Shown: positions 1,828-58,500 of the stretch, one piece after another
How the letters are laid out: every line of letters begins with the position of its first letter
Numbering within the stretch: the first letter of the stretch is position 1
Assembly (NCBI GenBank): GCA_035221665.1
Contig: CM069154.1
Location: 6,262,001-6,326,000 of the forward strand
Direction of reading: 5' to 3'
From: Okamejei kenojei
Taxonomy: Eukaryota
Length of the DNA: 64,000 nucleotides
Made by a program: the position numbers and the translations under genes
Notes under the pieces: model-generated
What the model saw: only the letters and a program-made list of their open reading frames with translations
What the model was told of the DNA's origin: nothing
Database searches by the model: none

Positions 1828-2180
1828 GGACACAAAATGCTGGAGTAACTGAGCGAAACAAGCAGCATCTCTGGAGAGAAGTAATGTGTGATGTTTCAGG
1901 TCGAAACCCTTTTTCAGACTGATGTCAGGCGAGTGGCAGTACAGAGATAAAATATAGTCGGAGACAGTAAGGTTGGTCAGAGAGCAAGGGCTACTTGAAG
2001 TTTGAGAAGTCAATGTTCATACCGCTGGGGTGTAACCTGCCCAAGGAAATATGAGGTGCTGTTTCTCCACTTTGTGCTGGGCCTCATTCTGACAACGGAT
2101 GAGGCCCAGGCCAGAATCAATAGTGTGGAAATTGGAGGATGAGTTAAAGTGTTGAGCAACCGGGAGATCAGGTAGCTTTA
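1828..2180 (-). mobile_element. Penelope-like element 3' fragments (GIY-YIG tail and pLTR with degenerate hammerhead core)
   Basis: Similar to the reverse complement of 51380-51880; includes VAQHFNS...KQHLIF homology. Confidence 0.75.
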
Positions 2181-2817
2181 GGCAGCTTTCGGGTGGGGTG
2201 GGGTAGTGCACAGGGAATATGATCCATTCTGAACATTACGTACATTAATCAGAACACAGGGCAGATTCTTGCTCCGTACGTGCAAATATACTGCAGCACT
2301 TTTGGGGTTCTCCTAAATATAAGGTTGTGGCAATAACACGTAGATGTTTGTGTGTTCGGTGGAACTGCAGATGGTGGTTTACACTGAAGATAAACATAAA
2401 ATGCTCTAGCAATTAGCGAGTCAAGGGCGACATTTTGCCAGCAGCGCAAAAGACAATCGTCAAATATAGTAGTTCCCAGCTTAGCTGGATGATAGAAACA
2501 GATTGAGTATGTGTGTATGTGTGCATATACACACTGAACTTTTTTTTCTCTCCCGTTATGTACCATGTTTACATATTCTGTTGTGCTGCAGCAAGTAAGA
2601 TTGTGATTGTTCTCTCTGGGACATAGGACAATAAAACACTCTTGAGTCTTGAAAAGCAACAGTTGACGTTTCGAGGCGAGACCCTTCTTCAGACTGAGAG
2701 TCAGGGGGAAGGGAAACAAGAGATATAGAAGGTACATAGAACAAATGAATGAAATATATGAATGAATGATGTTTAAACCTGTTCCTGATATGGCTCTATC
2801 GACAACATATTTTCCAG

Positions 2818-2864
2818 AATCCAAGTTCAATACATCACACGGTGAAGACAACAATGAAATCCAG
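2818..2864 (+). CDS. Receptor gene A, cytoplasmic exon 1
   Basis: tttccag|AA...ATCCAG|gtaaaa; 47 nt, phase 1 in / phase 0 out, fitting both neighbours; encodes (E)SKFNTSHGEDNNEIQ. Confidence 0.75.
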
Positions 2865-3549: not shown

Positions 3550-3869
3550 GAGAGATTTTTAATTCGGTGCGAGTTTTTGGCAATACTTGCTTTACCACTC
3601 TATTCAGTTTACACTGCTTTAATCTGACCTATACGTTGTCAAAGATGGACACAAAATGCTGGAGTAACTCAACAGGTCAGGTAGCATCATCTCTGGAGAA
3701 TATAGACAGGTGACGTTTGACGTTGGGACTCATCTTCAGATGGTCTTTAGAAAGGTCCTGACCCAAAATGTTAGCCATCAATTTTCACCAGAGATATTTC
3801 TTGACCATCTGAGTTACTCCAGCATTTTGGGTTCGTCTTTGGATAAACCGGCATCTTTTTATAGCTAGA

Positions 3870-6688
3870 ACATATAACAATTACAGCAAGGAAACAGGCC
3901 CTCTAGGCCCTTCCAGTCTGTGCCGACCATTTATTTTCCCCTAGTCCCATCTACCTGCACTCAGACCATACCCCTCCATTCCCTTCCCGTCCACATACCT
4001 ATCCACTTTACTTTTAAATGTTAAATTCGATCCTGCCTCCACCACTTCTGCTGGAAGCTCATTCCACACAGCCACACTCTCTGAGTAAAGATGTCCCCCC
4101 CCCCCCATGTTACCCCTAAACTTATGTTCCTTAATTCTCATGTCATGCCCTCTTGTTTGAATCTTCCCTACCCTCAATGGAAAAAGCTTATCCACGTAAA
4201 CTCTGTCTATCCCTTTCATCATTTTAAAGACCTCAATCAAGTCCCCCCTTAACCTTCTGTGCTCCAAAGAATAAAGACCTAACTTGTTCAACCTTTCTCT
4301 GTAACTTAGTTGCTGGAACCCAGGCAACATTCTAGTAAATCTCCTCTGTACGCTCTCTATTTTGTTGACATCCTTCCTACAATTAGGCGACCAAAATTGT
4401 ACACCATACTCCAGAATTGGTCTTACCAATGCCTTGTACAATTTTAACATTACTTCCCTACTCCTATATTCAATGCTCTGATTTATAAAGGCCAGCACAC
4501 CAAAAGCTTTCTTTACCACCCTATCTACATGCGATTCCACCCTCAGGGAACTATGCACAGTTATTCCTAGATCCCTCTGTTCCACAGCATTCCTCAATTC
4601 CCTACCATTTACCATGTATGTCCTATTTTGATTTGTCCTGCCAAGATATAGCACTTCACACTTATCAGCATTAAACTCCATCTGCCATCTTTCAGCGCAC
4701 TTTTCCAAATGGCCCAAATCTCTCTGTAGACTTTGAAAATCTACTTCATTATCCACAACACCACCTATCATAGTATCACCTGCATACTTACTTATCCAAT
4801 TTTCCACCCCATCATCCAGATCATTGATGTACATGACAAACAACAGTGGACCCAACACAGATCCCTGAGGCACCCAACTGGTCACCGGCTTCCAACCTGA
4901 CAAACAGCCATCCACCATTACTCTCTGACATCTCCCAATCAGCCACTGTTGAATCCATCTTGCTACTCCGCCATTAACACCCAAAGATTGAACCTTCTTA
5001 ACCAAACTTCCATGGGGAACCTTGTCAAAGGCCTTACTGAAATCCATATAGACAACATCCACTACTTTACCCTCATCAATTTCCCTAGTAACCTCTTCAA
5101 AAAATTCAAGAAGGTTTGTCAAACATGACCTTCCAGGCACAAATCCATGTTGACTATTCCTGATCAGACCCTGTTTATCCAGATGCTTATATATATTATC
5201 TCTAAGTAACCTTTCCATTAATTTGCCCACCACTGACGTCAAACTAACAGGTCTATAATTGCTAGGTTTATTCTTTGAACCCCTTTTAAACAATGGAACA
5301 AGCATGCGCAGTACGCCAATCCTCCGGCACTATTCCCATTTCTAATGACATTTGAAATATTTCTGTCATAGCTCCGGCTATTTCTACACTAACTTCCCTC
5401 AATGTCCTATGGAATATCCTATCAGGACCTGGAGACTTATCCACTTTTATATTTTTCAAAAGTGTCAGTACATCCTCCTCTTTGAATCTCATAGTTTCCA
5501 TAGCTACTCTACTTTTTTCCCTTACCTCACAGAGTTTAATATCCTTCTCCTTGATGAATACTGAAGAAAATAAATTGTTCAATATCTCCCCCATCTCTTT
5601 TGGCTCTGCAGATAGCTGTCCATTCTGGCTCTCTAATGGTCCAATTTTATCCCTCGTTATCCTTTAGCTATTAATATAGCTGTAGAAACCCTTTGGATTT
5701 ACTTTCACCTTTCTTGCCAAAGCAACCTCATATCTTCTTTTAGCCTTTCTAATTTCTTTCTTAAGATTCTTTTTACATCCTTTATACTCCTCTAGCACCT
5801 CATTTACTCCATGCCTCCTATAATTATTGTAGATATCTCTCTTTTTTGGAAACAAGTGTCCAATTTCCCTTGAAAACCATGGCTCTTTCCAATTTTTACT
5901 ATTTCCTTTCAACCGAACAGGGACATAAAGATTCTGTACTCTTACAATGTCCCCTTTAAATGTCCTTCATTTCTCTGCTACATCCTTCCCATAAAACAAA
6001 ATGTCCCAATTCACTCCTTTTAAATCCTTACGCATTCCCTCAAAGTTAGCCTTTCTCCAATCAAAAATCTCCACCCTAGGTCCAGTTCTGACTCTCTCCA
6101 TAATTATATTGAAACTAATGGTATTGTAATCACTGGTCCCGAAGTGCTTACCAACGCATACCTCCGTCACCTGACCTGCCTCATTTCCTAACAAGAGGTC
6201 CAGCACTGCCCCTTCTCTGGTCGATACCTCTATGTATTGTTGCAAAAAACTATCCTGCACACATTTTACAAACTCCAAACCATCCAGCCCATTTACAGAA
6301 TGTGTTTCCCAGTCTATTTTTGGAAAATTGAAATCTCCCACAATCACTACCTTGTGCTTACTACTAATATCTGCTATCTCCCTACATATTTATTCTTTCA
6401 ATTCTCGCTCCCCATTTGGCGGTCTATAATACACCCCTCAAAGTGTTGCTACACCGTTCCCACTTCTCAGTTCCACCCAAATAGCCTCCCTAGACGAGCC
6501 CTCTAATCTATCCTGCTGTAATATATTCTCTGACAAGCAATGCAACACCTCCACCTCTGGTCCCTCCAATTCTATCACACCTGAAGCAACGAAATCCTGG
6601 AATATTTAGTTTCCAATCGCAGCCCTCCAGCATCCATGTTTCACTGATTGCCACAACATCATATTTCCAGGTGTCAATCCAGGCTCTA
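3870..6688 (-). mobile_element. CR1-clade LINE, near full-length ORF2 (endonuclease plus RT), frameshifted and 5'-truncated
   Basis: ORFs 6508-6699, 5967-6347, 5664-5912, 5286-5594 and 3941-5305 give EN motifs (VVAISETW, VGDFNFP) and RT motifs (YRPVSLTS, DFSKAFDKV, PQGSVLGP). Confidence 0.95.
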
Positions 6689-6989: not shown

Positions 6990-8906
6990 ATTCCCCAACC
7001 CTCCCATCATAATTCCTTGCAAGGTTCAGCCTAAGCACACGCCAAAATATTGTGGGTTCAAGTCCAAAAAGAGGCAATGGAACAAACAAGAAAATGGGTT
7101 CAAGTGGATAGTGGGCTAAGGCTGAGAAGCCCAAGATGCCGCAGAAGTATGTTCAATTGGAAATGCTGGTCTTAGCAGCATTGCTACAGGACCTCTTGTC
7201 AACTCTAGAGGCACTCTGTTCGAAATATACAAAGTTCTTGCAGAGCAGCAGAGCGCAGGTTTCCTTGGCTCAATCGTGAAGACGTAGTGAGGCGGGGAAT
7301 GTTTGGCCAAAGCGCCTGTTTCTTTGTTGAATTAATCTATGACTCGAATACAATCTAGCCTGGGATCAATTGGTTCTTAAATATTAAAGGATTCACGGAA
7401 ATAGAAATAGTACTGAATATTGAGATGATAAAGGATAAGGTATGATTTTAATGCATGGTGTAGTTATGAAAGACCTAGTGCGGACTGACATATATGTTAA
7501 TTAATTTGATCACTCTACAATACACATTTATTTTTTTTAACACATTTCCAGTTAATGTACAAACACATCAAAGGCCATCGTGCGATGGAAATAAATATTG
7601 GGTTCTGAGTCAAATGTGTGAGCTGCATCTTGCTGTGGCCAACGAGCTTCCTGTTGATATGAGCAGCTGAATAAACACAAAAAAAAACTTCAGTGGGTCA
7701 AGCAGCATCTCTGAAAGGAAATGGGCAGATGACATTTCAGGTCAAGATCCTACTTCAGACTGGTGTTACATTTCTCAGAATATGACTGCCACAGAAACCC
7801 GCAAACATACAATGTGCACAGGTTCATAGGTTTTTAGTGCAGAATTAGACCTTTCGGCCATTCAAGTCTACACCACAATTCAATCATGGCTGATACATCT
7901 TTCCCTCCCATCCCCATTCTCCTGCCTTCTCCTTATAACAGCTGACACCCACACTGATCACGAATCTGTCAATCTCTGCCTCAGAAATATCTATTGAATT
8001 GGCTTCCACAACCATCTGTTAAAATAAATTCCACAGATTCACCCCCATCTGATGAAAGACATTTGGCCCATATCTCTCTAAATCTATCCTGTCCAGGTTC
8101 CCTCAGGTTCCTATTAAATCTTCCCCCCTCACCTTATGTCCTCTGGTTCTTAAACTATGTCCTCTGATCCTCAAACATTCAGCAGGAACATGTAGAGTAT
8201 GCGAATATTAGCTCAGGGAGAGCACCTTGCCCTGGCAGGTCAGTGGGTTTCAGGTAGAACACAGTGGCACAGCGGTAGAGTTGCTGCCTTACAGCGCCTG
8301 AGACACAGGTACGATGCTGATTTCAGGAACTGTCTGTATGGAGTTTGTATATTCCCCCTGTGTCCACAAGAGTTTTCTCCGGGTGCTCCAATTTCCTCCC
8401 ACACTCCAAAGACATAGAGGTTTGTAGGTTAATTTTCACAGTAAATTGTATACGGGGTGAACACTGGTTGGCGCGGTCTCGGTGGGCCGAAGAGCCTGTT
8501 TCCACGCTGTATCTATAACTTTTTCTTGTCAATTGCCCACACCAGAAGGAGATGGATAACGATCTTGTCCAGAGCACATCTGCCTTGTGTAACTCTGTGG
8601 TTGTGCAACACACGCAACGCTAAAAGGATCTGACTGGGGAGCCCTTCACACCAACTTGATGGGGTTCTTAAAGATAGCAGAGTCAGGGGTTGTGTGGAGA
8701 AGGCAGGAGCGTGGTACTGATTGTGGATGATCAGCCATGACCACATTGAATGGTGGTGCTGGCTCGAAGGGCCGAATTGCCTACTGCACATATTGTCTTT
8801 TGTTTATAACACCCAAGGAAGGATGTTCACAGTCGGTTTGCAAAACCATCATGGAGGAAGTACCATAGACTTAACTCTGCAGTTTGCTTGCCGGTTTGCA
8901 AGCATG
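6990..8906 (+). repeat. Local segmental duplication, copy 1 (paralogue of ~9630-12842)
   Basis: Colinear matches, e.g. 7030 ctaagcacac/9660, 7180 ttgctacaggacctc/10478, 7590 atattgggttctgagtcaaatgtgtga/11714, 8815 ccaaggaaggatgttcacagtcgg/12748. Confidence 0.9.
8262..8515 (+). mobile_element. tRNA-derived V-SINE (HE1-like); other copies at ~2960(-), 12368, 12920, 19150(-), 23222, 37788, 38730(-), 45300
   Basis: A/B-box head (gtggcacagcggtagag...) and conserved central ttctcc...gggtgctcc...tttcctcccacactccaaagac; CR1-like tail gggccgaagagcctgtttcc. Confidence 0.8.
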
Positions 8907-9334: not shown

Positions 9335-9335
9335 T

Positions 9336-12600: not shown

Positions 12601-12842
12601 CCAATAAAACTTTCTTGCCAATTGCCCACTCCAGAAGTAGATGGATAACAGTTTTGTCCAGAGCACAATTGCCTTGTGTAGCTCTATGGTTGTACAACAC
12701 AACGCAACACAAAAAGGATCTGACTGGGGAGCCCTTCCCACTGCCACCCAAGGAAGGATGTTCACAGTCGGCTTGCAAAACCATCGGGGAGGAAGGACCA
12801 TAGACTTAACTCTGAAGTTTGCTTGCCAGTTTGCAAGCGTGC
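9630..12842 (+). repeat. Local segmental duplication, copy 2 (has extra sequence at 9790-10440 and a CR1 insert)
   Basis: Colinear with 6990-8906. Confidence 0.9.
10547..11450 (+). mobile_element. CR1 fragment: ORF1 C-terminus (SGNH/esterase-like) and ORF2 endonuclease N-terminus
   Basis: FEFLDHWNLFWGRHDLYTKDGLHLNPRGTNILAGRF, then YDVAAISETWLQEG...GVYYRPPN; near-identical to the reverse complement of 6130-6688. Confidence 0.9.
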
Positions 12843-16880: not shown

Positions 16881-17955
16881 GTAGGTTTCTCCGTGAGTGA
16901 CTTCATGTCTCCACTATTCATCCGCATAAAACCTTTCTTGGGTCACATATGGGAGTCTGGCGCGCAGTTCTAGTCGCCTCTTCATAATACAAAAGATGTG
17001 AAAGGTTTGCAGAAAAGGTTCATCGGGATATTTAATTGTAGTTTACAAATGCAATATGGAAACGGATCCTTTGGCCCACCGAGTCCATACCTACTAGCGA
17101 TCACCGGTCACACTAGTTCTATGTTATTCCACTTTCCCAGTCGCTCCCTACACACAAATTTACAATACCGCCATTCACACACCTCATTAGTGCAACAGTA
17201 TCACTATCAACAATTTTATGCAAGGAAATTAAAACGTTGTTGATAGTTATAGTGTTGCAATAATGAGGTGTTTGAATGTTGGTATTGTAGAATTGTGGCA
17301 GAGTTTCAGATTAAAGAGATTAACTGCAGATGCTGAAATTGTAAAACAATGACAGATGGTGCTGCTGTGTACTGGTACAGTGGCAGACATGGTTGTTCGG
17401 CAGCTGGGACGATGGAGAGACACTGAGATGTTCAAATCTGGTAAATTGTGAGGAGAAGGAGCAGCGAAGACTTACAAGGATGTTGCGATGACTTGAGGGC
17501 CTGACATACAGGGAGGACCTGAGCAGATTAGGACTTTATTTCTTGGAGCGCAGGAGGATGAGGGATGATCTTATGGAAGGTAAAAAATCATGCGAGGAAT
17601 AGATCGATTAAACACACATGAAATGAGGTACATGAAATGAACTGCCGACAGAAGAAGTTATGGCAGGTACTATCGTAACATTTACGAAAATATTTGACGG
17701 GTACTTGAATAGGATATGTTTAGAGGGTTAAGGGCCAAGAAAGGGCAGGTGGAACTAGTGTAGATTGGGCATGTTGGTCAGCGCGGGCAAGTTAGACCGA
17801 ATGGCCTGTTTCTACGCTGTATGCCTCTGTGATTGTATGTAGATGGATGGGTCAGATTCCAACCTGGCGGCTCTGGCTAAGATATGGTGGATATTGGCGC
17901 GTGTTTGATTTTCAGATGTTCACCTAGTGTCTGATTGTTTGCTCCTTTCCCACAG

Positions 17956-19851: not shown

Positions 19852-20736
19852 GTAAACCGCTCTGTTTCCAATGAAAGTTACACTGTACTAATTGCTGGTG
19901 TTTTGATTGGGAATGCTTTAATTGGGGAACAGTTGTGCCTTCCTTTCGCTGGCATTGAATGGCGTGAGAGTATTGATCTGAATGCACAGTGGCACAGCCT
20001 GTAGAATTACAGCCTCACAACGCACGACCCTGGTTCATTAGGTGCTGTCCAAGTGTGGTCTGCATGTTTTCCCTTTAATTGTGTTGGTTTGATTTAAGTA
20101 CTCCAGTTTCCTCTCAGCTCCCAAAGAGTTGTAAGTTGCATATTGCCCAGTGTGTACAGGAAAGCGGTTGAAAATGTGGATAGGGGGTATGTGGGCGGCC
20201 GGAGGACTTAGGATATACGAACATTAATACCGCCGATATGAGCGAATCTCTAACCGAAATTTCGATCACGATTCCTCCATCCACACACTGACCGCTTAAT
20301 CCAAGTAATATCGAGGATGTGATATTGAGCATTATCATTTTTAATTAATTTTATTAACTGGCATCATCTGTTTCCATATTTATTGCCCCACCTGCTTTCC
20401 ACCATTAGAATTGATCTTTTTTTATTATTCCTGTATATCCATATGGATTTTATTATAATCTTCCTTGCAGCTGCATTTTCTTTCTTCCGGGGTATTACAC
20501 TGTTCTTCCACATCCCCAGTTTCCCTCTCCCGTGACTCCCAGTCTGAAGAAGGTTCTCGACCCGAAACGTCACAAATTCCTTCTCTCCAGAGATGCTGCC
20601 TCTCCCGCTCGGTTTCTCCAGCATTGTGTGGCTATCTACTCTGTATTCGCTGTATTCACTGCTCCATCTCATGACTTATTTATCTGTCTTCTCCGACTAC
20701 ATTTAACCGTGTAATTTCTCATTCCCAGTCTTGCAG

Positions 20737-22911: not shown

Positions 22912-22945
22912 AGTCTGAAGAAGGGTCTCGACCCGAAACGTCACT
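22912..22945 (+). ncRNA. Minimal type-I hammerhead ribozyme motif in a Penelope pLTR (representative intact copy)
   Basis: agt-CTGAAGA-a-GGGTC tc GACCC-GAAAC-GTC-act: CUGANGA and GAAA cores, stem II, an ACGU palindrome in place of stem III, GUC cleavage triplet, agt/act stem I. Confidence 0.7.
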
Positions 22946-26480: not shown

Positions 26481-26656
26481 ACCGACACAACAGGTACAAT
26501 AACAGCACTGCCTGCACTTCAGACCGGAGACATTGGCCGTGAAGCAATATGACACATCATGGAACGATTTAAGTTTTCTTTAATATAATTTTCAAAATGT
26601 ATCTACTCTCATGAAACAGTTCAATTCCTCTCAGTTCTGAAAGTTTCCCCCTTCAG

Positions 26657-26977: not shown

Positions 26978-28740
26978 GTAGGTTCCGCAGCGATTGACTT
27001 CATGTCTCCACTGAAATGACTGATCCATGTTTTCTCCGGGAGTGGTCAGGGCAGCACCGATATCCCGAGGCTCCGCAGCAGTGCAGGGACCTGCGGGGAG
27101 CGGGCGGGGGTCGGGAAACCCCACTCATGTTGCGCTCACCCAGTGCGGGCTCTGTCCCACTGAGCGGCCACCCACTTCAAGTGGGATGCTCTGCACATTT
27201 CCCTGCCTCTGAACTGTTAATTTACAAGTCGAATCGGTAGTAAGGAAGGCGAAAACAATGCTAGCATTTATTTATCGAATGTTAAAACTGGGATGTATTG
27301 CTGGAGCTCTAAAAGGCGTTGGGCAGACCACATTTGGAGCAGTTCCTGGCCCCATATCCGAGGAAGGATGTGCCAGCTCCGGATAGGCTCCAGAGGAGGG
27401 TTACAAGAATGATCCCAGGAATAAGTATGTTAACAAATGATGAGCGTTTGACGGTGCTGGGTCTGTACTCGCTTGAGTTTAGAAGGATGAGGGGGAACCT
27501 CATTGATACTTACCGAATAGTGAAAGGCCTGATTAGAGTGGATGTGGAGAGGATGTTTCCACTAGTGGGAGAGGCTCGTGCCAGAGGCCATAGCCATAGA
27601 ATAAATGAACGTTCTTCAGAAAGAAGATAAGGAGGGATTTCTTTAGTCAGAAGGTGGTGCATCTGAGGAATTCATTGCCCACAGACCGATGTGGAGCACA
27701 AACCAATTGATATTATAAGGTGGGGGTTAAGGGTCAATGTATAAGCGGTTATGGGGAGAAGGCAGGAGATTGGGGTTAAGGGGGGAAAATAGATCAGCCT
27801 TGACTGTGAATGGCGAGGTTGACATGATGGGCTGAATGGCCTAATTCTTCACATAGACACTATGAAGTTATGAAGTCTCTCCGTCCCCACTTCACGGATC
27901 AGTCACCCCATCGCCACCCCGCGGTCTCTCTCTCCCTCTACCTCCGTGAGTCTGACTGTCCCCCAATTAAATGTTATTTCTGTATGCTTCTTTATCACCT
28001 TCTCGTTACCAACAATAATCTATTCTACAATTTCCTTGAGCCCTTCTGCTTTGATGTCTCGTTTTCACACCTTATTCTTCCTTACCTCTGTGCCCCCCTC
28101 TCCCCTGACACAGTCTGAAGAAGGACCTCGACCTGAAACGTCACCCATTACATCTATCCAGAGATGCTGCCTGTCCTGTTGAGTTAATCCAGCATTTTAT
28201 TTCTGCCCATGTATCTGTCTAATTGTTTATTAAACATTGCGATAGTCCCTGCCTCAACTACCTCATCTGGTAGCTCGTTCCATACACCCACCACCCTGTA
28301 TCTGAAAGAGTTACCAGTTACAAAAATTCCGATTAATCTTTTCCCCTTCCTCTTAAAATTGCCCAATCTCTCTCTATTGCTCAGACCCTTGTGTCCTGCC
28401 AATCTCATCGTAACTCTTCTCCGCGCCCTCACCCACTTGACAACATCTTTCCCAGAACATATTATCCAATGCCCAATTCAGGCATCTTGGCAATACCGAG
28501 GCATGGGGGGGGGGGGGGGGGAAGGGGTAGATAAGATGAAAGACACAAAAACTGTAGTAACTCAGCGAGTCAGACACCATCTCTGGGGAAAAGAAAAATG
28601 TGGCCTTTCGGGTCGAGACCTTTCTTCAGTCGATAAGCTGATAAAGTTCAATTCTAGTGGGTCCTGGCTGAGATGTAGAAGTTTTAAAATATGGAGAAGG
28701 TTTTTCAGATGTCTACTCAATGTATAATTCTTTCCAACAG

Positions 28741-44940: not shown

Positions 44941-47384
44941 CAATAACACGATATTTCATGGCAGGATCCCCCTTGTCCAATTTAGTTTTGCAAATTGCGA
45001 GTCTTCTTCAGCAGTATCGATTTGTGATAAGTCTTAGACTTTATTCATCTGCTACCCTTTAGCCCAATATATTCCTGACAAACCAGAATGTGTCTTTATT
45101 TGAACAATAGCTTGACAGAGCTATTATTATCTTTATCAGATTAATATATTGACATGAACTTTCAACAGTCTTTGGAGGATGGAAAAATACACACTCTTAT
45201 CAGGTTATGGCCTAGTCCATGATTATGAATTTTACTAAATAGCTAATAATTTAACTATGAAAGCGAAAAAAGCTTATCTCTTCGATATAATCAAATGGGA
45301 TACAGCAGAGACCTGGGTTTGATCCTGAACATGGGTGCTCTCTGTACGGAGTTTATACTTTCTTCCTGTGACCATTTTTTTTACTGTGACCTAAGTGTGT
45401 TTTTCACTTTTTCTATGTTGTTCTGATATTTCTACCTTTATAGGGCTGCAAAACGGATTGAGTGAGCGCGGTAGAGCTGCTGCCTCACAATGCTGGAGAC
45501 CCAGTTATTCAATCCTGAATTACCTCGGATGCTGTCTGTGTAGGGAATTTGCACCTTCTCCTTGTGACTGCGTGGGGCTTCACCAAATGATCCGGTTCCC
45601 TTCCACATCGCAAAGAATGTGGGCCTGAGGGTTAACTGGCCTCTGTAAATTGTCCCTCGTGGTTGAGAAAGTGGGATAACATAGCACTAGATTGAACAGA
45701 TGATCGGCGATCAGCGTAGACTATGGGCTGAAGAGCCTGTTCCCATGTTGTATCTCTAAATAATTGTGGGAAAATGGGACTAATGGAATTGCTCCAACAG
45801 AAGGAGAATGGATGAAGAATCAAGTGGCCTCCTTCGGTGCGATAATAATTGAATGATTTTATTGTTACGACCCTCTCATTAATCATCTAGAGATTGATAG
45901 ATATGATTCTGTTTAAATCATTTCCCAGATGTGTAATAATGCTTATCTGCTGCATCAATGCATTCGCTAGCCGCTGCACTGGCAACGCTTGATTTAATGC
46001 AATAAATTGCACCATTATATTCATGCATTACTCGCAACTGTACATATAATTTTTGTATTTGCCAGCTGATCTTTGATTACACACTGGCAGTCAAGGCAAG
46101 CCAGTTCAGAATAAAGGAAATTTAGACCAAAGCATCCAGCTGGAATTCAATCCACAATTTAAAATCCACTTATTTAAAAGAATTCTATTATAACCATTCA
46201 ATGTCTGCACATGTAATTAAAATGCCAAATGCAAACACAAGCAAGTTGTAATTAGTATCGCCTTCTTTCTTTCAATTCCCTTCCTCTCAAAACGAACTCT
46301 TCATTCGCAGTGCACTCGATATCCTTCTTTAACCATCATTCTTTATTAACAGCATGCAGAGATTCCCATCTGTAGAAAGGAAGTACAGATACTGGTATGA
46401 GTCCGAAGATAGACACAAAGGGCTGGAATAACTCAGCGGGTCAGAAAAAGGATGAGTGACGTTTCGGGTCAGAACTCTTCTGAAGTTAGTCTTCAAAATT
46501 CAGAGTCTGAAGAAAGTTTCCAACCCATAACATCACTTATAAGTTTCCGACCCATAACATCACATAATAGCACATTGTTTCTATATTCATTGTGCTATCT
46601 GGGACACATGAGAATAAACTCTCTTGACTTGACTTTAGTATCCGCAGAGATTCCTATGTCCTAGATGTGCTAGGAATGGCTTGTAGGTGCACATGTGTAA
46701 TTGGGAAACATAAGCTGACCAAAATATTGTATTCTTACATAACCTAAGAATTATGTCCTTCACTCAAGTGAAATTTCTAACCAAATAATTACAAGGGATA
46801 AAGGATAATTTAACAGCTTACATTCAATTGCGCTATTGTGAAACCACATATTTTAAAGTAGGTTAAACCCTTATTTAGAACCTTTGGAAACATATGAAAG
46901 TCTTCTGAAACAATTCTTGTTAGGCAGCAGACAGATTTAATTATCAGAGTAAAGGGATTACATATGCGTTTTTCACGATAAATGCGTACCTGAAAGTAAA
47001 TAATGGAAAATGTTGATAAAAAGCATGTGACCAAGATAAGATAACGGAATGTCACAAGCTGTATTCAAGAAATGCAGCGATTTTACATATTGTACATTCT
47101 GAAAGGAACTATGAACATTGCATTTAGTTTGACAATAAAAATCAGCAATCTTAGAAACAAGGAACTGCAGGTGATGGTTTGCACAAAAGGACATTAAGTG
47201 TTGAGGTAACTCAGCGGGTCAGGCAACATCTTTGAAGAACATGGATAGGTGACGTTTTCTGTCGGGGCCCTTCCTCGGTCTAAAGAAGAGTCCCGCCCTG
47301 AAACGCCACCTATCCATGTCCACCAGAACCTTCATAGCCTATTCCTTCATAAAGAAATAGGCTATCATGCTTTTTTCATGCCGT

Positions 47385-47424
<40 letters not shown>

Positions 47425-49353
47425 GGGGGGGGGATGGACGATATAAATTCAAATGTTTATTCATGTGCTGGTCAGGGCTTTAGGATGATCTGTGGTAATG
47501 AAACACTGTGAAAATGTTTGTTATTCCTTGTTTTATCTTTCCTTCATAATGCAGGATGTTTATATATATTAATAACGTATAGCATTAACATCAATGGATT
47601 CTGTTTTTGTTCATATGTTCCATTTCTCTGAACTTCCTAATAATTTAAGTGTTATCAAGTGCAAGGTAGTGATGTTGAAAAACAGTCAATTTTTGCATAA
47701 AGCATGGTTTTAATTTGTTCCCGTGACACCGAGTCATACAGATGGGAGTGGACGCAAGTTCCGTTCTTGGCTCGGGTTACAGTTACTTATTTTATCCGAG
47801 CTGACAGACAGGGAAATAAAATTAATCTCGGAAAGGGGAAGTAGGAAAAGCAACAAATGCTGCTCAATATTGTGTCCGCTCACCGGTTCTACAAAAAATA
47901 CGTATAGGTGTTGGCCGTAGTTAGGATTAGGCTCATTTATACCAATATTTTAGTTTACTTTAGTCTAGAGATACAGCACGGAGATACTGTAGGCTCTGCA
48001 GATGTGTTGAAAGGGACTCCAGATGCTGGTTTACACCGAAGATAGACACAAAATGCTGGAGTAACTCAGCTGGACAGGGAACATCTCTGGAGAGAAGGAA
48101 TGGGTGATGTTTTGGGTTGAGGCCCTTCTTCAGCCTGATAGTCAGGAGAGGGGGAGACGAGAGACATGGAAGGAAAAGGTGTGAAAAAAAAAAATCAAAG
48201 TGGACAGTGAACGAGTGGGTTAAACCGCGGTCATAGAGCTGGAGAACAGGAGGAATCACAGAAGGGGAGCAGCGAGAAAGGGTGCTTCAGAACTCTCGTC
48301 AGAGGAGGAGAACATTTTCAAAGTCGGCAGGAAGGAACTACAGATACTGGTTTATACCGAAGATAGACGTAAAATGCTGGATTAACAGCTGGACAAGCAG
48401 CATCTCTGGAGAAAATGGCTGATGTTTCGGGTGGAGACATTTCTTCAGACTGAGAGTCAGGGGAAAGGGAAATGAGAGATACAGGTGGTGATATAGATAG
48501 AATGGCTATTTTTAACATATTGTTCCCAAATACACTGTTTTACAAGAATAGAATTGCCATACCAGGGTGTTTCGTTGGCACCTTCCTCTAGCTAACTATG
48601 ATCTATGCTACATTTTCCTTCAGCCTCGTCCCCTTTGAGGTATTGTTTTCACACCTTACCCTTACATTTCTCCCTTAACTCTCAGTCTGAAGAAGGATCT
48701 CGACCCGAAACATCACCCATTCCTTCACTCCAAAGATGGTGTCTGTCCCCGCTGAGTTACTCCAACATTTTGTGTCTCTGTTCAGTGTAAACCAGCACCT
48801 GCAGTTGATGTGATAGCTGAAAATGAGTTACATAACTGCAGACGAAATGTAGGGGGAGGAACTGCATATGTTGGTTTAAACCGTAGACTCAAAAAGCTGC
48901 AGTGGTACAGGCAGCACCTCTGGAGAAAAGAGGTGACGTTTCAGGTCAAGACCCTTCTTCAGCTGAAGATTGACATTAAATATTGGAGTTACTCACCGAA
49001 ACAAGGGTCTCTGCCCAAAACTTAAACCATTCCTTTTATCCAGAGATGCTGCTTGTCCCGTTGAGTTACTCATCTTTGGTTTAAACCAGCATCTGCAGTT
49101 TCTTCCTATGCAGTTCGATAGATAAGACACAGTTCTGCAGTTCTGTAAAGGTAGCATCTCTGGGGAGAAGGAATGTGTGACGTTTTGGGTCGAGACCCTT
49201 CTTCGGGAAAGGGAAACGAAAGACGTAGACTGTGATGTGGTGAGATATGGAATTGAATGAATGAAATGCAAAGCAATAAAACTAACAATGATAAAGGAAG
49301 CAGGTCAAATGGGAAAAAAAAGAACTGCAGATGCTGTTAAAATCGAAGGTAGA

Positions 49354-49681: not shown

Positions 49682-50087
49682 GTAGACACAAAATGCTGGT
49701 GAAACTCAGCAGGTAAGGCAGCATCGATGGAGAGAAGGAATTGGCAAGGTTTCGGGTTTCATTCCCACACTGGCCTCTTGTGCAGGAAGGAACTGCAGAT
49801 GCTGGTTTAAACTGAAGGTAGACACGAAAAGTTGGAGTAACTCAGCGAATCAGTCAGCATCTCTGTATTAAGTGACGTTTCGGTTCTTCAGGCTGAAGAA
49901 GGGTCTCGACCGAAAAAGTAGCCGAATGGCCTACTCCTGCACCTATTTTCTATGTTTTCTATGTCACCTATCTCCTTCTCTCCGCAGATGCTGCCGCACC
50001 CGCTGAGTTTCTCCAGCATTTAAGTGTCTACATAGAAATGTACCTTCAGATGTTACCTTAAAGATTGAATCGAATTGAATTGAATAG

Positions 50088-50176
50088 TCTGAAGAAGGGT
50101 CTCGACCCGAAACGCCGCCTATCTCCTTAGATGCTGCTGCTGCACCCACTGAGTTTCTCCAGCCTTTTGTGTACCC
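50088..50176 (+). mobile_element. Mini Penelope insertion (hammerhead core plus tail) with a 12-bp TSD
   Basis: tgaattgaatag at 50076-50087 and 50177-50188. Confidence 0.75.
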
Positions 50177-50195
50177 TGAATTGAATAGCTGCCTG

Positions 50196-50544
50196 GGGGT
50201 TACACAAAAAGCTGGAGAAACTCAGCGGGTGCAGCAGCATCTAAGGAGCGAAGGAGATGGGCGACGTTTCGGGTCGAGACCCTTCTTCAGACTGGTCAGG
50301 GATCAGGGAAACGAGAGATATAGACGGTGATGGGGAGAGATAAAGAACAATGAATGAAAGATATGCAAAAAAGTATCGATGATAAAGGGAACAAGCCATT
50401 GTAAGCTGTTTGTGGTGTGAAAATGAGAAGCTAGTGCGACTAGGGTGGGGGAGGGAGATGGAGATAGAGGGAATGCCAGGGCCCGAGGGCTGAGGGAGAG
50501 GTGGGAAGGGAAGGAGACAGCAAGGGTTAACAGAATTGAGAAAG
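50196..50544 (-). mobile_element. Penelope pLTR, inverted, with a 13-bp TSD
   Basis: Near-identical reverse complement of ~51537-51882; gaatagctgcctg at 50183-50195 and 50545-50557. Confidence 0.85.
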
Positions 50545-50592
50545 GAATAGCTGCCTGTTTGCCAGACTTGCACCGAGGGTGACTACAACTCC

Positions 50593-51882
50593 GACATTTT
50601 CGACATTTCCCTACCATTCCTTGACCTCACCATCTCTATTGCAGGTGATACGCTCCTGACCGACATCCACTACAAACCAACTGACTCCCACAGCTACCTG
50701 GACTACTCTTCCTCCCACCCTGCTTCCTGTAAGGACTCCATCCCCTATTCCCAATTCCTCCGTCTACGCCGCATCTGCTCCCAGGATGAGGTGTTCCACA
50801 CCAGGTCATCACAAATGGCCTCATTCTTCAGAGAACGGGGATTCCCCTTCCCCACCATTGATGAGGCTTGCACCAGGGTCTCCTCCATACCCCGCAACAC
50901 TGCCCTCGCTCCCCATTCCCCCACTCGCAAATAGGGCAGAGTCCCCCTGGTCCTCACCTTTCACCCCACCAGCCGGCAAATACAACATATAGTCCTCCGC
51001 CAGTTTCGCCACCTCCAACGTGACCCCTCCACCCGCCACATCTTCCCATTTCCCCCCCTGTCTGCCTTCCGCAAAGACCACTCCCTCCGCAACTCCCTTG
51101 TCAATTCTTCCCTTCCCTCCCGCTCTACCCCTTCCCCGGGCACTTTCCCTTGCAACCGCAAGAAATGCAACACTTGTCCCTTCACCTCCCCCTTCCACTC
51201 TTTTCAGGGACCCAAGCAGTCCTTCCGGTCAGACAGAGGTTCACCTGCACCTCCTCCAACCTCATCTACTGCATCCGCTGCTCCAGATGCCAGATGATCT
51301 ATATCGGTGAGACCAAGCGGAGGCTTGGCGATGCTTCGCCGAACACCTCCGCTCGGTCCACAATAACCAACCCGACCTCCCGGTGGCTCAGCATTTCAAC
51401 TCCCCCTCCCATTCCGCATCCGACCTCTCGGTCCTGGGCCTCCTCCACGGCCAGAGTGAGCAACACCGCAAGCTGGAGGAACAGCACCTCATATTCCGCT
51501 TGGGGAGTCTGCATCCTTTGGGCTTGAACATTGAATTTTCTCAATTCTGTTAACCCTTGCTGTCTCCTCCCCTTCCCACCTCTCCCTCAGCCCTCGGGGC
51601 CTGGCATTCCCTCTATCTCTATCTCCCTCCCCCACCCCAGTTGCACCAGCTTCTCATTTTCACACCACAAATAGCTTACAATGACTTGTTCCCTTTATCG
51701 TCGAAACTTTTTTGCATATCTTTCATTCATTGTTCCTTATCTCTCCACATCACCGTCTATATCTCTCGTTTCCCTGATCCCTGACCAGCCTGAAGAAGGG
51801 TCTCGACCCGAAACGTCGCCTATCTCCTTCGCTCCTTAGATGCTGCTGCACCCGCTGAGTTTCTCCAGCTTTTTGTGTACCC
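50593..51882 (+). mobile_element. Penelope-like element, 5'-truncated: RT C-terminus, GIY-YIG endonuclease and pLTR, with a 14-bp TSD
   Basis: FLDLTISI...YKPTDSHSYLDYSSSHP..CKDSIPYSQFLRLRRICS; FTCTSSNLIYCIRCSRCQMIYIGETKRRLGD; gtgactacaactcc at 50579-50592 and 51883-51896. Confidence 0.9.
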
Positions 51883-52620
51883 GTGACTACAACTCCCGTG
51901 GTTCAACGCGTGGCTTCCGCCGTGTGGGCCGGATGTGAGGTCAGTGTAGGGCAGGGTTTCCGTTTTCAAACGTTGACTGTCAGGGCTCGTGGCGAGCGCT
52001 CGCGTTTAAACCGCCAACGGTCCGCTCCGCTCCGGGAGCTCGAGCGGCCGCTGAGCCGCTGGACGGCGGGAGCCCTCGGCAGGTCCCCTCCCCTCAGGAC
52101 TTACTCCGTGAGGAAAAACTCGCCTTTTTAATTGTGTGTTCGTGTTACCTTTCGATCTCCGAGCCGGGGGCTTGGGGGTAGAAAACCTCAAGAGTCCGGT
52201 GGCCGCTGCACGCTCCCTCCTTCCTTCCTTCCCTCTCTCCCTCCCTCGGGGGGGAAGACTCCCGTCGCCTCGACTCACTCCCCTCGGGAGGAGAGTCTCT
52301 CTCCCCCCCCCCCCCCCCCCCGGTCGCCGCCATGGGCTGCACCATGAGCGCCGAGGACAAGGCGGCGATGGCCAGGAGCAAGATGATCGACCGCAACCTG
52401 CGAGAAGACGGCCAGAAGTCGTCGCGGGAAGTCAAGCTGCTGCTGCTCGGTAAGGGGAAAAACAAAAACGGCCGGGTAGTGGTGGGGGTGGGGGGGGGGG
52501 GGGGGGGGGGGTGAGGCATTCAGTCGACGGGTGGGACAGACCTGCACTGGCGGTCGCGCCTGCCCCTTCGCCGCCTGTGCCCCAGGGGACGCTGTGTCCG
52601 GAGGTCCGCCTGCCCGGAAA
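51883..52620 (+). promoter_or_regulatory. CpG-island promoter and 5' UTR of the GNAI gene, with an ACTACAACTCCC (ZNF143/THAP11-type) motif at 51886-51897
   Basis: Sharp rise in GC and CpG around exon 1; motif fits ACTAYRNNNCCCR; strong Kozak gccgccATGG. Confidence 0.7.
52332..52449 (+). CDS. GNAI3: G protein G(i) alpha subunit, coding exon 1 (GNAI family; GNAI3 favoured)
   Basis: [39 protein letters not shown](G)|gtaagg; 118 nt, the canonical GNAI exon-1 coding length; MGC myristoylation/palmitoylation site. The family is certain; the paralogue is inferred (IDRNL favours GNAI1/3 over GNAI2, plus linkage to a pIgR-like cluster). Confidence 0.8.
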
Positions 52621-53499
52621 CAGTGGCAAAAGTAATTCCGTAAAGTTGTGAACATCAGTCCGCCTAAACCTTCACGATCTCCTGGTTGCGAAACACTTTT
52701 AACTCTCCGCTCCCATTCCCACACTGGCCTTGTGTACAGGAAGGAACTGAAGATAGACACGAAAAGTTGGAGTAACTCAGCGGATCAGTCAGCATCTCTG
52801 GAGAGAAGGATTCGACCCGAAACGTCACCTAATCATTTTCTCCAGAGATGCTGCCTGACCCGCTGAGTTATTTCAGCTTTTTGTGTCCACCCACACGAAC
52901 CTTTTCGTCCTGGGCCGCCTCCTCTGTCAGAGTGAGGCCCAGCGCAAATTGGAGGAACAGCATCTCTTATTTTGCTAGGGCAGCTTACATTCCAGCGGTA
53001 TGAATATTGATTTCTCTAACTTCAAGTAACCCTCGCTTTCCCTCTCTCCATCATAGACCCTTCCCCCCCCCCCCCCCATCCTAGTTCTCTGACCAGCCTG
53101 ACTGTCCCCTTGATTTATCTCTATGCTTCGGTGTTAATTCTTGCTAGCATGATCTATTCTACATTTTCCTTGATTTGTCATCACCTTTTGATCTCGTTTT
53201 CACACCTTACACTGCCTTTTCCCTGTCTCCCCCTCCACTGACTGTCTGAAGAAGGATCTCAATCCGAAACGTCACTCATTCCTTCAATCCAGAGATACTG
53301 CCTGTCCTGCTGTCATGAATTTCCTGCATAAGAAGGAACTGCAGATGCTGGAAAATTGAAGGTAGACAAAAATGCTGGAGAAACTCAGCGGGTGAGGCAG
53401 CATCCATGGAGCAAAGGAAATAGGCCACGTTTCGGGTCGAGATGCTTCCTCAGGTCTCCTCAGACCTTCCTCACCCACTGAGTTTCTCCAGCATTTTTG

Positions 53500-55552
53500 T
53501 CTACCTTTATTTTTATTAATATGTTTTTGTTCGTCTTTTATTATTTTTATTTTAATCTTAATTTGAACGTATTTAAAATACCAAAGAGTAAAAGAAGATT
53601 CAACGAAATGATCCTCCCCGACTGACAGCCACAGTTAAAACGTTAGTAAGTCATGAGGGCTATTTTAACACATGTTATGCTCATGATTTAGTTCTAATGC
53701 GACTCTAGAATCTACAGTAACCTCCCTGTCTGACTGCCATCACTGCCTGAGCTGGTTGACGAGAGAGAAAATGTCGGGGAGAGTCCACTGGCCATCCAGT
53801 CTTCAGGCGCGAAAGGTTGCATTGCAGAAATTAAAAGATGAAAAGCAAAGGCAGTTATTTCAAGCAGGGGTAAGACCCGGCAATATTGCTATTGAAGCGA
53901 CTTATAAAGTAGCTTATATACTCGGGGTGGGGGGGGGAAGGGAAGCCATTTACCGATGTAGAAATCGTAAAATAATGCATTGTCGAAATTGTAGGATGCT
54001 TAGACCCCGATAAGGTTTCAAAGTGCAAACAACTGCCTCTTTCAAAGAAAACTAACTGATTGGCAGCATGAATTAGCCCTCAACGTAACAGAACATTTTT
54101 CCAAAAGGAAAATATATTATTCAATCGCTGTGGATGAATCAACTGATACTACTGACTCGGCATAGGTTTTATACTTTATTCGGGCCATAACAGAAGATTT
54201 TCTTTGCTACGAAGAGTTACTTGCTTTGGGCACTCTTACGGGTAGAACGCGAGGAATAGATTTCTTCAACAACTTTCAAGATAAATGGCATGAAGTTGGA
54301 ATGGATTTGGTTAATTTAGTGAGTGTATGTACAGACGGTGCACCTTCCATGGCAGGAAAACGTGAAGGGTTTATTGCACAGATAAAGGTATTATCAGATA
54401 CAGATGCTCATTTCATTGTATCTTACATCAGCAAAATCTCTGTGCTAAATCTACTATTTTAAGTGACACTTTGCAACAAGTTATAAGTATTGTTAACTAT
54501 ATTCGTGTAAATGGAACACGGCATCATCAATTTCGTAATGTGCTAAAGTTGGACGATGAGGCATACATTCAGTGTGGATTTGCTGTATCCATGTTGAAAA
54601 TGTTGAAACGGGGACAGGTGTTAGCAAAATTTTTATCTTTGCGGGAACAAATAGTTAAATTTCTTGAAGAACAGAATCAACAATGTGAATTATTGAAAGA
54701 AGATTTGTATAGAAATACTGCATTTCTGTGTGATGTCAAAGCAAAATGATTTGAATGTTTCTTTGCAAAACTAAGTCTATATTTGATATGTGGCAAAAAA
54801 TCCAAGCATTTCGAAAAAAAATATTTTTTCAAAACTCTTCTTCAAAATGAAATTTCGGAAGAACATTTTCCCCAGTTAGCGAAGGTCATTGGTGAGCAGG
54901 AGGATTCATGTGAATCATTTGACGAATACGCAGCTGTTATAGACTTATTAATTAAAGAATATAATGAAAGGTTCACTGGCTTTTAGAATCATGACATCAC
55001 ACTCAAATTAGCATTTCAACCTCACCTAGTTGATGTCTCCAAGGCTCCTAAAGAACTACAGATGGAATTGATTGCGCTCAGTAGATGAAATTTTTAAAGT
55101 CCTTATTTGACGCTAAGAAAGATCTGATTTAAATATGGAGAAATGCAATAGAATACCCACGTCTTTGGCAACATGCACGATAAATGCTTTCTTGCTTTTC
55201 AACCACTTATTGCTGCGAATCTACATTCTCCTTCCTAACCCAAATCAAGACGCCCTTAAGGTCACAAATGACAGATACGCATCTAGAAGAGCAGCTGAAA
55301 CTGCGCACCTCCATGTTGCAACAAAATATTCAAATGCTCTCCCACAAAAAGCAGTCACAACAAAGTCATTAAAAGGGTAGTTAACTTTAGAATTTTTTTT
55401 TTTTCATTTACTTGAAGTTAGTACATAGTAGTTAGATTTTTACTAAATAATGTACATTTTGAAGTAAATCTAATTGAACTTTCTTGGATGCGGCCTTATT
55501 AGATTACAGCTAACAATGCAGCATTCCAACATGAACAGGTTCCCCACCCCTG
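53500..55552 (+). mobile_element. hAT (Charlie/SPIN-like) DNA transposon relic in GNAI intron 1
   Basis: SIAVDESTD, CTDGAPSMAGK, FSTTYCCESTFS...QQSH*, with stops and frameshifts; right TIR aggttccccacccctg at 55537-55552. Confidence 0.85.
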
Positions 55553-58500
55553 CATTAAGTCAGTGCTAGTAATTCTGGGGTAAAACTGTGAATAAAATCT
55601 TTAAGCTAGACCAGGTTGCACAAAGTAGTGTAGAAACGCACAGCTTGGAGCATTTAAAGTGGAAGTCCTGCGAGTATAGCAAGTTCAAGTAATTTATTGC
55701 AAAAATCTATTAAAATCATGAAACTGCTAACTTGGCATTTTTTCACTTGCATATTTGAGCCATTTGTAATATTTTTGTAAAGTGCAATGGGTACATTAAA
55801 ATAAGTGCATTTACTCATAGGCACATTTATGACCATTTATGAACATCTCTAAAATATAAATTTGGATTCCAATGGCAATGGGATTATGGTGATTGATTGC
55901 ATTCTGACCAAATGTGTATCTGAATGTCTGTTCACAAGCGGATCACAAATTAATCTTACTAGAGCATAGTTCAACATTGTTTTTCCAATGAAAGTGATGG
56001 ATCTGTGGAATTCTTTGCCACAGAAGGCTGTGGAGGCCAAGTCAGTGGATATTTTTAAGGTCGGGATGGATAGATTCTTGATTAGCACAGGTGTCAAAGG
56101 TTATGGGGAGCAGGCAGGAAAATGGGTTGGGGGGGAGAGATAGATCAGCCATGATTGAATGGTGGAGTAGACTTGATGGGCCGAAAGGCCTAATTCTGCT
56201 TCTATTCCTTATGACCTTATGAAAGTTGGCTGTGTATATTGACCCTGGTATGGCAATTCTATTGTAAAAGTGTATTTGGGAACAATATGTTGAAATAGCC
56301 ATGCATTATTGTTTTGTCTTCCTAATTTGTGACAATTTGGTAGTTAATATGTGAGAACATTTAATGGGATTATATGCTCTGCCTGAACAAACAGTTAATT
56401 ATCCATACTCTTGGGTATTTATAGGTTGCTATGAATTTTGTCATTGTATATTTTAATTAATCGACTGAGTATTTCTTTCTTTCACCATCTACATTTTGTT
56501 TTATGAAGTGGATTGTGCATGTGTGTGAGAGTAGCAGGAAAGAAGTGAATGGATTTCTGTGAATAAATGCTTATTATGAAATGAATGAAGCACTTACTTA
56601 CTTAGACTTCATTCCTCCCACACTGATGAGTGTATTTGGCAGCAAGTTTTTGCCTTTCTGATCAGTTATGTGCAACGTCTTCCACTCTCGACAGGCTTGC
56701 ATCCCGGGCTTCCAAATCATTCTGGAATGTTCGCCTCCATGTGAGTTTTGGTCGGCCTCTTTTCCTTCTTCCATCAGGTTGCCATGTTATTGCTATCTTA
56801 GGTACAGGCTCAGGTGACATTCTGAGTACGTCCTGCAACTATCATACTGTGTACCTCTATGTCCTGGCAGAGAGGCTTTGTTGCAGTTGCAGAATGAAGC
56901 ACAACATGCTTTAATGTACATTATCCTATGGTATAGTACTCGGAAAAGGTATACATTCGTCAACCACTATCGATTTATTAGTGTCATGTGTACAGAGATG
57001 CTGTGAAATTTACATGCTCCCTAGGTAAATCATACCATAGTCAAATCATACAAAAGTACAACATGTAGTGCAAGGAGAAAATAGACAGAATACAAAATAT
57101 AGTATTACAGCTACAAAGGAATTAAAATAAATTGCAAGGTCTGTAATGGGCGAGATTGGCACTATACCCTGAGAGGTTTGTTCAATAGTCTAAAACAGTA
57201 AGGATAGGGGAAAGCTGCTCGTGAGTCTGGTGGTATGTGCTTTCAAGCTTTTTTAACTTCAGCTCAATGAAAGAGAGACGAGGGAATGACTGGGGTGTTT
57301 GTAGTCCTTGATTATGTTGGCTGCTTTCAGGGGCAGCATGAGGTATAGATGGACTTGATTGGGAGGAAGCTGATTTGTGTGGCGGACTGGGCTGCAACCA
57401 TCACTCTGCAATTTTCCGTGGGCTTTGTCTGAGCGGTTTCCAAATGAAGTTGATGCATCCTGATAGGATGCATTCTCTGGTGCATCTGTAAGAGTCATTG
57501 GAGTCATGCTGAACATCCGTCGATAAATGCAAAATGCTTGAATAACTACTGGGGTCAGGCAGTAGCATCTCTGGAGATCATGATTGGTGACATTTTGGGT
57601 TGGGACCTTTCCTCTTAATCTTCTGAGTAAGTACAGGCAGTGGTATGCCTCCTTGGCTGTAGTTTCAATGTGGTTGGAGCAGGACCCATTGTTGAAGCAC
57701 TTGAGGGATGAATTGTTGCCAACAATACTACCTGACTTCACATTGTTGTTCATTATAGCATGCAGGCCTCCATGTGGGTATCCTGGGACTCTAACGTGGT
57801 CTCAATTTTCTCCTGGTATCCTTCATGGCTTTTTTTAAAAGATCATACATGGATTCCTTGTCAGAAGTGTTCAACTTGGACTTCACCTTGCGGTTCATAA
57901 TTTTCTTTTCCCACTTGGGAACATGCATATCCTCGTCTTATGCAGTCTTCTATGCACGTGCTGGTGAAGACTGTGATGGCACTTGCATACTCATTTGGTT
58001 CGCTGCAGGCTCCTTGAATATGGACCAGTCCACCGACTCGTCCATATTCAGATAAGTGTCTTATCTGTTTCCTTATGACATTCTGTACCGAATGCACCAA
58101 CGTCAGCATCAGCTGTAAGCAATGAGTAGAATCTCATCCTGTTTGTCAGATTTATCTAAACGCAGTGGGGGAAGGAACAGTGTGTATTGATGATTATGTA
58201 GCAGTGGTCGAGTAAGTTCAAGCTCCTGTTGGCCCACTACTTATCAATTTCCATATGGAGGTTCCACCTTACCTCCAATTAAAAAAGCCGACAACTATAG
58301 GGCTTTTTGAATTTATTGTATGAGCATTTTATTGAATTATACAGGTCTGATTCTATGCCCCAATATTTGAAATGGCTGTGGGAAATTAATAATTGAGTTG
58401 TCTGAGATGTGCTTTCTGCACGAAAATAGCTCGAAGCTGTAACTTCAGAAATTGAAATGCAAAATATAAAGCAATAGGTTTGAATGAGTGCTCTGCAAAA

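Follow-up and report, generated by a model that had tools for sequence, protein, structure and literature searches.

The stretch of the skate (Okamejei kenojei) genome analyzed here, 64,000 nucleotides (nt) long and called the window below, is scattered with copies of a minimal hammerhead ribozyme motif that belongs to the pseudo-long terminal repeats (pLTRs) of a Penelope-like element (PLE). The ends of young copies suggest that these pLTR-end repeats were probably copied from RNA that the hammerhead had left uncut, and that the copying was likely done by two reverse transcriptases (RTs) priming 63 and ~98 nt past the cut. Coordinates are positions within the window, and signed offsets are nt relative to the cut after the GUC triplet.

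Ends of young copies

Young copies have their 3′ ends at two sites, a short one (S) at +63 and a long one (L) at ~+98. Among 133 unpaired ends, 40 S and 17 L direct insertions had target site duplications (TSDs; mostly 10 to 16 bp) on both sides, one of the L insertions being a missed inverted pair. A TSD was recovered within 340 nt for 87 of 509 unbiased copies, compared with 7 of 509 in the shifted control. Every copy that spans GUC derives from RNA uncut at this position. In locus L182, the upstream pLTR carries a short direct repeat at +43 to +51 and +72 to +80, one before each 3′ end site; a similar repeat pair occurs in older subfamilies, making these a candidate pair of protein-binding sites.

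For the 5′ ends, we excluded array members and element-like "TSDs," since arrays of a 54-bp tail unit contaminate the histogram. The TSD-verified ends then included 19 in the −36 to −17 interval and 1 past +3, with the −16 to +3 interval empty. From 141 non-ascertained anchors, we set aside 98 (other subfamilies or indels) and analyzed 43 young copies, 21 of which begin at −33 to −26 (mode, −30), with no starts in the −60 to −36 range or at +1. Genome-wide, 6,796 exact copies keep −30/−29 but lose the template letter at −31, and 5,806 keep −31 but lose −32. Template loss amounts to ~17% per position at −31 and again at −32, compared with 1 to 4% point mutation at −29. The genome counts at −31 also show an excess of G (3,308 G versus 3,488 C+T), as a cap-derived G might leave. 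The mini insertion at 50088-50176 exemplifies a copy that begins at this pileup and has a TSD. Such minis are at least as common as copies bearing the 3′ untranslated region (3′UTR), with the upstream 3′UTR absent in 54 of 107 exact copies. Four contig-only runs of two related organisms also contain the family, with loose ends around −30 to −32; as contigs do not reveal where RNAs end, we do not use them as evidence.

Inverted insertions follow a strict rule. Each of the 26 young tail-out pairs whose inverted TSD spans at least 9 bp combines one S and one L end (chance of at most 0.5^26 if the ends were independent). Across subfamilies, a TSD was found for 33 of 174 close pairs, of which 29 were S+L, 4 were unclassifiable, and none were SS or LL (the 26 young inverted insertions and the 29 small S+L pairs are overlapping sets). 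No arm of 16 small young inverted pairs reaches beyond −35, though their size would permit it, and 17 of the 18 arms in 9 long pairs do so, with either arm being the longer one. Accordingly, the arms of a pair behave as if copied from the same site on a single RNA. Fold-back junctions vary from copy to copy. In one inverted insertion (L186:934-1463, 16-bp TSD), both arms end at −32, and ~300 nt of other sequence are captured between them.

The 54-bp minisatellite arrays (up to 17 units) derive from the pLTR tail alone, without the hammerhead. They were seen at L080:3527-4451, L080:185-561, L036, L037, and L048 and in 23 loci among L194 to L237 (contig C1, first 5 Mb). Array junctions occurred only in C1 loci and in none of the 80 evenly chosen stretches sampled below. 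Separately, L080 holds one 44-bp two-unit duplication that carries the motif twice.

The host element and its hammerhead

A first-pass annotation of the window had proposed a high-copy family of minimal hammerheads derived from Penelope elements. This attribution holds: an intact RT–GIY-YIG element lies between two motifs, and exact motif copies number 48,215 genome-wide (reversed control, 0). At L182, a natural 1185-amino-acid open reading frame (ORF) lies between two direct motif-bearing repeats 3954 nt apart, giving a pLTR-ORF-pLTR architecture with a unit of ~3.95 kb. The ATG is 134 nt past GUC, so that the "tail" is the 5′UTR of the next unit, and in 21 of 30 loci a motif precedes the ORF-start query by 154 to 156 nt. 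The ORF encodes a PLE-type RT with a DKG motif followed by a C-terminal GIY-YIG domain, and related proteins have the same domains; its Pfam matches (RVT_1, E = 4.5e-6; GIY-YIG, E = 0.004) both fall below the Pfam curated cut-offs. The closest named relative is a bamboo-shark protein (70%), in line with a cartilaginous-fish host.

Immediately before GIY-YIG lies a C-x4-C-x2-C linker, which fits the CX2-5CxxC linker of the Neptune clade, a motif that, according to the accessible sections of PMC8557442, is not exclusive to Neptune. By this linker and the domain order, rather than by a tree, we assign the element to the Neptune-type endonuclease-positive (EN+) Penelopes. The same sections describe for Neptune a single ORF with RT and then a C-terminal GIY-YIG, pLTRs, partial tandems, an inverted 5′ copy, and a 30- to 40-bp tail at one end; pLTRs, partial tandems, inverted copies, tail, and TSD were all found in the skate family. 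With the RT piece of the window's own element, we obtained 37,771 first-look candidates genome-wide, of which 150 were scored and were 90 to 100% identical. A Pfam search of the window's element fragments gave no match.

In the window, a 28-mer of the hammerhead motif had 13 matches at ≤3 mismatches (0 in 100 dinucleotide shuffles), and a profile search had 42 (0 in 3 shuffles). The hammerhead columns are covered by 32 copies; the core plus all stems are kept in 4 of them (22915, 50263, 51790, and 53246), and 28 are broken. Fuzzy scan and profile search placed the motif or a variant of it at, or a few bases away from, all 25 sites listed in the first pass, the one at ~3710 in a degenerate form. 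The count of ~25 was too low, as it missed, e.g., 3765+, 47258−, 47300+, 49017+, 49881−, 52819+, and 57596−.

The repeats carry every sequence feature of the minimal type I hammerheads of metazoan PLEs as set out in the accessible text of Cervera and de la Pena 2014 (PMC4209133), and on these features we class the motif. The CUGANGA and GAAA cores are present with a UH cleavage triplet and are invariant across six subfamilies. The likeness extends to an unpaired base between 9 and 10.1, the stem II pair G10.1-C11.1 (present with a bulged base before it in the skate motif and its relatives), a palindrome at 15.2-16.2, the pLTR location, and mostly dispersed single copies. The palindrome replacing stem III is ACGU in the window family, as the first pass had read it, and CG occupies 15.2-16.2 in 15 of 19 relative matches found with a descriptor that demanded a palindrome. 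Stem II, initially drawn as GGGUC/GACCC, is actually GGGU/ACCC, closed by a 4-nt loop, and CUGAAGA is followed by a bulged A; we do not accept the fifth pair because the loop would shrink to 2 nt. Skate stem I differs from the PMC4209133 set in having only 2 bp; in the relatives, its length is 3 to 8 bp in 17 of 19 matches. The agt/act stem I read at 22912 is a one-copy state, the third position being A·C in 115 of the sampled copies that cover it. The skate copy number (48,215 exact, ~76,000 estimated intact) compares with ~4,000 (coelacanth) and ~9,000 (Xenopus) descriptor matches in PMC4209133, although the methods differ, and the accessible main text of that paper lists no cartilaginous fish among its PLE hammerheads. 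Rfam hammerhead families had no match in the window.

A descriptor search of 80 related-element loci gave 15 sense and 4 antisense matches (0 in 20 shuffles). When we aligned 8 of the 15 sense matches, those of equal length, with 2 window copies, 96.8% of cells were paired, 5 of 7 pairs varied on both sides, and slid controls paired at 18 to 48%; these covariation figures come from 9 distinct related rows chosen by a pairing-demanding descriptor, which takes weight from our reading. What the alignment shows is a conserved architecture whose stems change freely; it does not amount to an unbiased statistic. Among 474 copies, six subfamilies recognized by their tail columns differ in 18 of 58 such columns and in no core or stem II column, indicating that active lineages keep the motif. 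Four subfamily differences near the motif (loop, C17 to U, 1.1, and 1.2) are compatible with the fold.

Stem I covaries across relatives, and its subfamily changes retain pairing via G-U. The change to gc/gc at 51788 had been taken as compensatory-looking. Genome-wide, position 2.1 carries C together with G in 277 of 24,086 copies (1.15%) and together with the mispairing A in 357 of 9,106 (3.9%). The change is a sporadic mutation, and within-genome compensation in stem I was rejected on these counts. No such compensation was seen in stem II; 2 of 194 copies have the A-U pair found at 53246, a frequency close to chance. When the natural 5′ region is folded in silico, its core is predicted to pair with pyrimidines downstream, stem II has a probability of ≤0.01, and the hammerhead form lies 5 to 8 kcal/mol above the minimum; folding z-scores were not significant (−1.76 to 0.84).

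To estimate abundance, we sampled 798,500 bases from 80 evenly chosen ~10-kb stretches, which yielded 336 matches, 183 covering the whole core and 22 fully intact. Scaled to the genome, these give rough estimates of ~1.2 million matches, 0.63 million of them core covering and ~76,000 intact. The window, with 26 core-covering matches versus 16.2 per 64 kb in the first 60 stretches (~1.6×), is ordinary in motif density. In 194 unascertained copies, non-CpG core bases are kept at 93% and the better half of tail columns at 91%; the catalytic G12, which lies in a CpG, is kept in 69%, compared with 71 to 78% for noncatalytic CpG bases. Intact copies made up 25 of 188 unascertained ones. Genomic copies thus decay like neutral DNA after insertion, with no sign of maintenance, and the idea of maintained self-cleaving modules is not borne out.

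A copying model and its rivals

We propose that transcription would start at −31/−30, on a YYANWYY sequence resembling the initiator consensus, so that the RNA would hold both priming sites twice. Priming at the 5′ site set would run off after ~92 or ~128 nt and produce the abundant minis, and priming at the 3′ site set would give ORF-bearing copies. A protein dimer would make a staggered cut, each nick priming at one of the two sites (one RT per site), and head-to-head joining of the two cDNAs would produce the fold-backs. The hammerhead would likely be kept by selection on active elements and likely needs protein help.

The double-priming model fits the in vitro work on PAc, the Poseidon element of Anolis carolinensis (Frangieh et al. 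2024, PMC11167929). The accessible sections of that report describe two internal RT starts downstream of the hammerhead that define the tail, uncut RNA as the template, extension of both strands, a predicted dimer, and a hammerhead that is dispensable and protein assisted. They place the start of the PAc ORF inside the hammerhead, whereas the skate ORF begins 134 nt after it, and inverted insertions, an S+L rule, and run-off minis are absent from them. The Drosophila virilis Penelope transcription start lies inside the pLTR, as given in the available part of PMC2377424. For the Adineta vaga Penelope (Arkhipova et al. 2013), the available text of PMC3846280 reports head-to-head inverted pLTRs with a TSD and a tail on one; there the tail is optional, with self-priming on an antisense template proposed, whereas each skate inverted insertion has one tail (26/26), which fits double priming.

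A stricter version of this model is tentative, falling slightly short of an even chance. Here, Penelope integration would be obligately double primed on one RNA, a dimer starting one cDNA per fixed site from the two strands of a staggered cut; the transcript would begin exactly at the hammerhead, with 5′-end priming mass-producing strong-stop-like minis and fold-backs. If obligate double priming is true, a single rule would account for the tail, for the inverted pLTRs, and for the surplus of solo hammerheads across animal genomes, and the ribozyme would be switched off during transposition.

Several points weigh against copying from uncut RNA by two RTs as we propose it. Judged by eye, 18 of the 30 ORF-start loci reach farther upstream than the proposed start, which means that longer transcripts serve as well. 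Very short or 5′-OH-templated cDNA may integrate poorly, which could account for the lack of 5′ ends at +1. The available data in PMC11167929 show no strand difference in start site in bulk. Tail-out pairs without a TSD (n = 124) include 65 SL, 30 SS, and 11 LL; we provisionally read the SS and LL pairs as neighbors or array members. The cap-derived extra G is not significant in local direct insertions (12/34). Finally, old subfamilies have lost G12 to a somewhat greater extent than their other CpG bases (0.52 to 0.56 versus 0.62 to 0.71).

With the same element, the −30 edge might instead stem from an RT stop, an endonuclease cut at the near-palindrome at −33 to −25, or processing at a 3′-splice-site-like pyrimidine tract ending in AG at −31/−30. 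We consider this unlikely. A pyrimidine tract plus CAG does precede the motif, the intron end of D. virilis Penelope maps to the 5′ end of helix I (accessible text of PMC4209133), and no cap-derived G was shown. However, no constant upstream exon was seen, TSDs directly abut −30/−29 in several copies, 101 of 226 copies read through into the 3′UTR, and both arms of long inverted insertions usually pass the edge.

It is also improbable, in our view, that the short copies are a self-propagating SINE (short interspersed nuclear element)-like or retrozyme-like family, transcribed from minis and mobilized in trans, although such remobilization can coexist with the uncut-RNA model. The minis contain both priming sites and the proposed start, and their abundance would suit such a family. 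Young minis nevertheless share their subfamily letters with ORF-bearing copies, their fold-back junctions vary, and the hammerhead copies are dispersed, unlike retrozyme tandem arrays. The non-LTR retrozymes covered in the available portion of bioRxiv 10.64898/2026.07.22.740005, which include a chondrichthyan one, are likewise pLTR derived, hammerhead bearing, and noncoding; they form tandem arrays with a hammerhead per unit, in contrast to the dispersed, TSD-flanked singles or fold-backs of the skate. Tested for tandem units each with a complete hammerhead, the skate copies proved dispersed, and their 54-bp arrays lack the hammerhead.

In the model of PMC4209133, as far as its accessible text sets it out, the RNA of the element is cut by its hammerhead and then religated into circles, so that the site is whole again when reverse transcription begins. 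This would also yield copies spanning the cut site and partial tandems, and one tandem with 4072-nt spacing was seen, but a circle has no 5′ end and leaves the sharp −30 pileup and the −35 arm limit unexplained, making this route very unlikely here.

Both the motif and its host element are of known kinds, the hammerhead being a known PLE feature, and a tail on one inverted pLTR has already been described (available parts of PMC3846280 and PMC8557442). In a literature search covering mainly open papers, without Repbase or supplements (relevant material may be in those of PMC4209133 and PMC11167929), we found no paper on the hammerhead of the skate family, a strict S+L rule, or run-off minis. 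The value of the family lies in its numbers: with ~0.6 million copies estimated and a natural intact ORF in a young subfamily, this genome records transposition at single-base resolution. Three testable rules result, namely, the pairing of an S with an L end in each inverted insertion, run-off of 5′ ends at the hammerhead edge, and the absence of ends at the cut site; they bear on the open questions of the origin of the tail and inverted pLTRs and of the role of the hammerhead.

Host genes and other features of the window

Immunoglobulin (Ig) V and C2-type exons form tandem receptor genes in the window. These paralogous genes (leader near 24706, V exon, and C2-type exon) occupy 15676-36600 and may resemble CD300/pIgR. 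Exon 1 of a Gi/Go-type G-alpha gene lies at 52334-52451, with exons 2 onward in neighboring stretches. The first pass had placed sense copies in receptor introns and in G-alpha intron 1 and suggested that they could affect pre-mRNA. The copy at 28115 does lie between Ig V and C2-type exons, and 20544 is likely intronic, before a putative terminal exon, yet stem II is broken in both. The placement of 53246 in G-alpha intron 1 was correct, exon 2 lying ~4.7 kb beyond the window.

PLE hammerheads reportedly cleave as dimers (Lunse et al., RNA Biol). The first-pass reading, in which active modules cut host pre-mRNA as dimers in introns, could draw on the ~76,000 intact copies estimated (22 in 798,500 bases), on two intact sense copies ~20 kb apart in the G-alpha gene, and on the weak dimer cleavage of PLE hammerheads described in the accessible text of PMC4209133. 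It is nevertheless most improbable: G12 decays neutrally, most window copies (28 of 32) are broken, stem I is shorter than in most relative matches, and the predicted folds disfavor the active form. Of the six copies in the examined part of the G-alpha gene, four are sense (a small number), which also counts against it; two of the four are intact. An effect on host pre-mRNA by cleavage thus seems unlikely, and most genomic hammerhead copies would do nothing to host RNA; intronic fold-back hairpins would be a more plausible host effect than self-cleavage.

Hammerhead-bearing and related features of the window
Feature	Position	Strand	Remark
Intact minimal hammerhead, older-subfamily pLTR copy	22912..22945	+	Predicted cut after 22942
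~90-nt mini insertion: hammerhead (U16.1 mutated) plus short tail	50088..50176	+	Starts at hammerhead 5′ edge; 12-bp TSD at 50076-50087 and 50177-50188
Separate young solo pLTR: 3′UTR, intact hammerhead (50260-50293), short tail	50196..50544	−	13-bp TSD at 50183-50195 and 50545-50557
5′-truncated young Neptune-type element	50593..51882	+	14-bp TSD at 50579-50592 and 51883-51896
Intact hammerhead, stem II A-U pair replacing G-C, sense, G-alpha intron 1	53243..53276	+	
pLTR copy, stem II mismatch, sense	20506..20634	+	Between Ig C2-type exon 17928-18281 and putative terminal exon near 22140
pLTR copy, stem II broken (28115), sense	27981..28204	+	Between Ig V exon 26641-26994 and C2-type exon 28728-29066
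Old tail-out fold-back pair, both hammerheads decayed	3640..3856		No TSD recovered
Old tail-out fold-back pair, decayed	47157..47320		No TSD recovered
Old fold-back with short-end stub (minus) and long-end arm (plus)	48975..49122		By-eye reading
Fold-back in G-alpha intron 1: long-type arm minus, short arm plus	52738..52889		By-eye reading; core incomplete
Fold-back in G-alpha intron 1: long arm minus, short arm plus	53331..53501		Core mutated
Other decayed single hammerhead-plus-tail copies and tail-only stubs	1828..57612		1890−, 2665−, 7731−, 11852−, 14572+, 28602−, 32033−, 32699+, 36754+, 46458−, 48106−, 48421−, 48687+, 48935−, 49179−, 49893+, 57589−

Three independent young Penelope insertions lie within 1.8 kb (50076-51896) in GC-rich, promoter-proximal DNA ~450 bp upstream of the G-alpha start codon. 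We had considered 50198-51882 as one element with an inverted head and rejected this, the stretch holding three separate insertions, each with its own TSD. The 5′-truncated element at 50593-51882 runs from the RT C terminus through the Cys linker, a frameshifted GIY-YIG, the 3′UTR, and an intact hammerhead (51787-51820) to a short tail.

The hammerheads at 7731 and 11852 are not independent insertions, because they sit one in each half of a 1.3-kb local duplication (7338-8906 and 11457-12841; 84% identity). LINE (long interspersed nuclear element)-type retroelement fragments occur at 3941-6688, 10796-11461, 40882-42246, and 62367-63856, two of them with an RVT_1 match.

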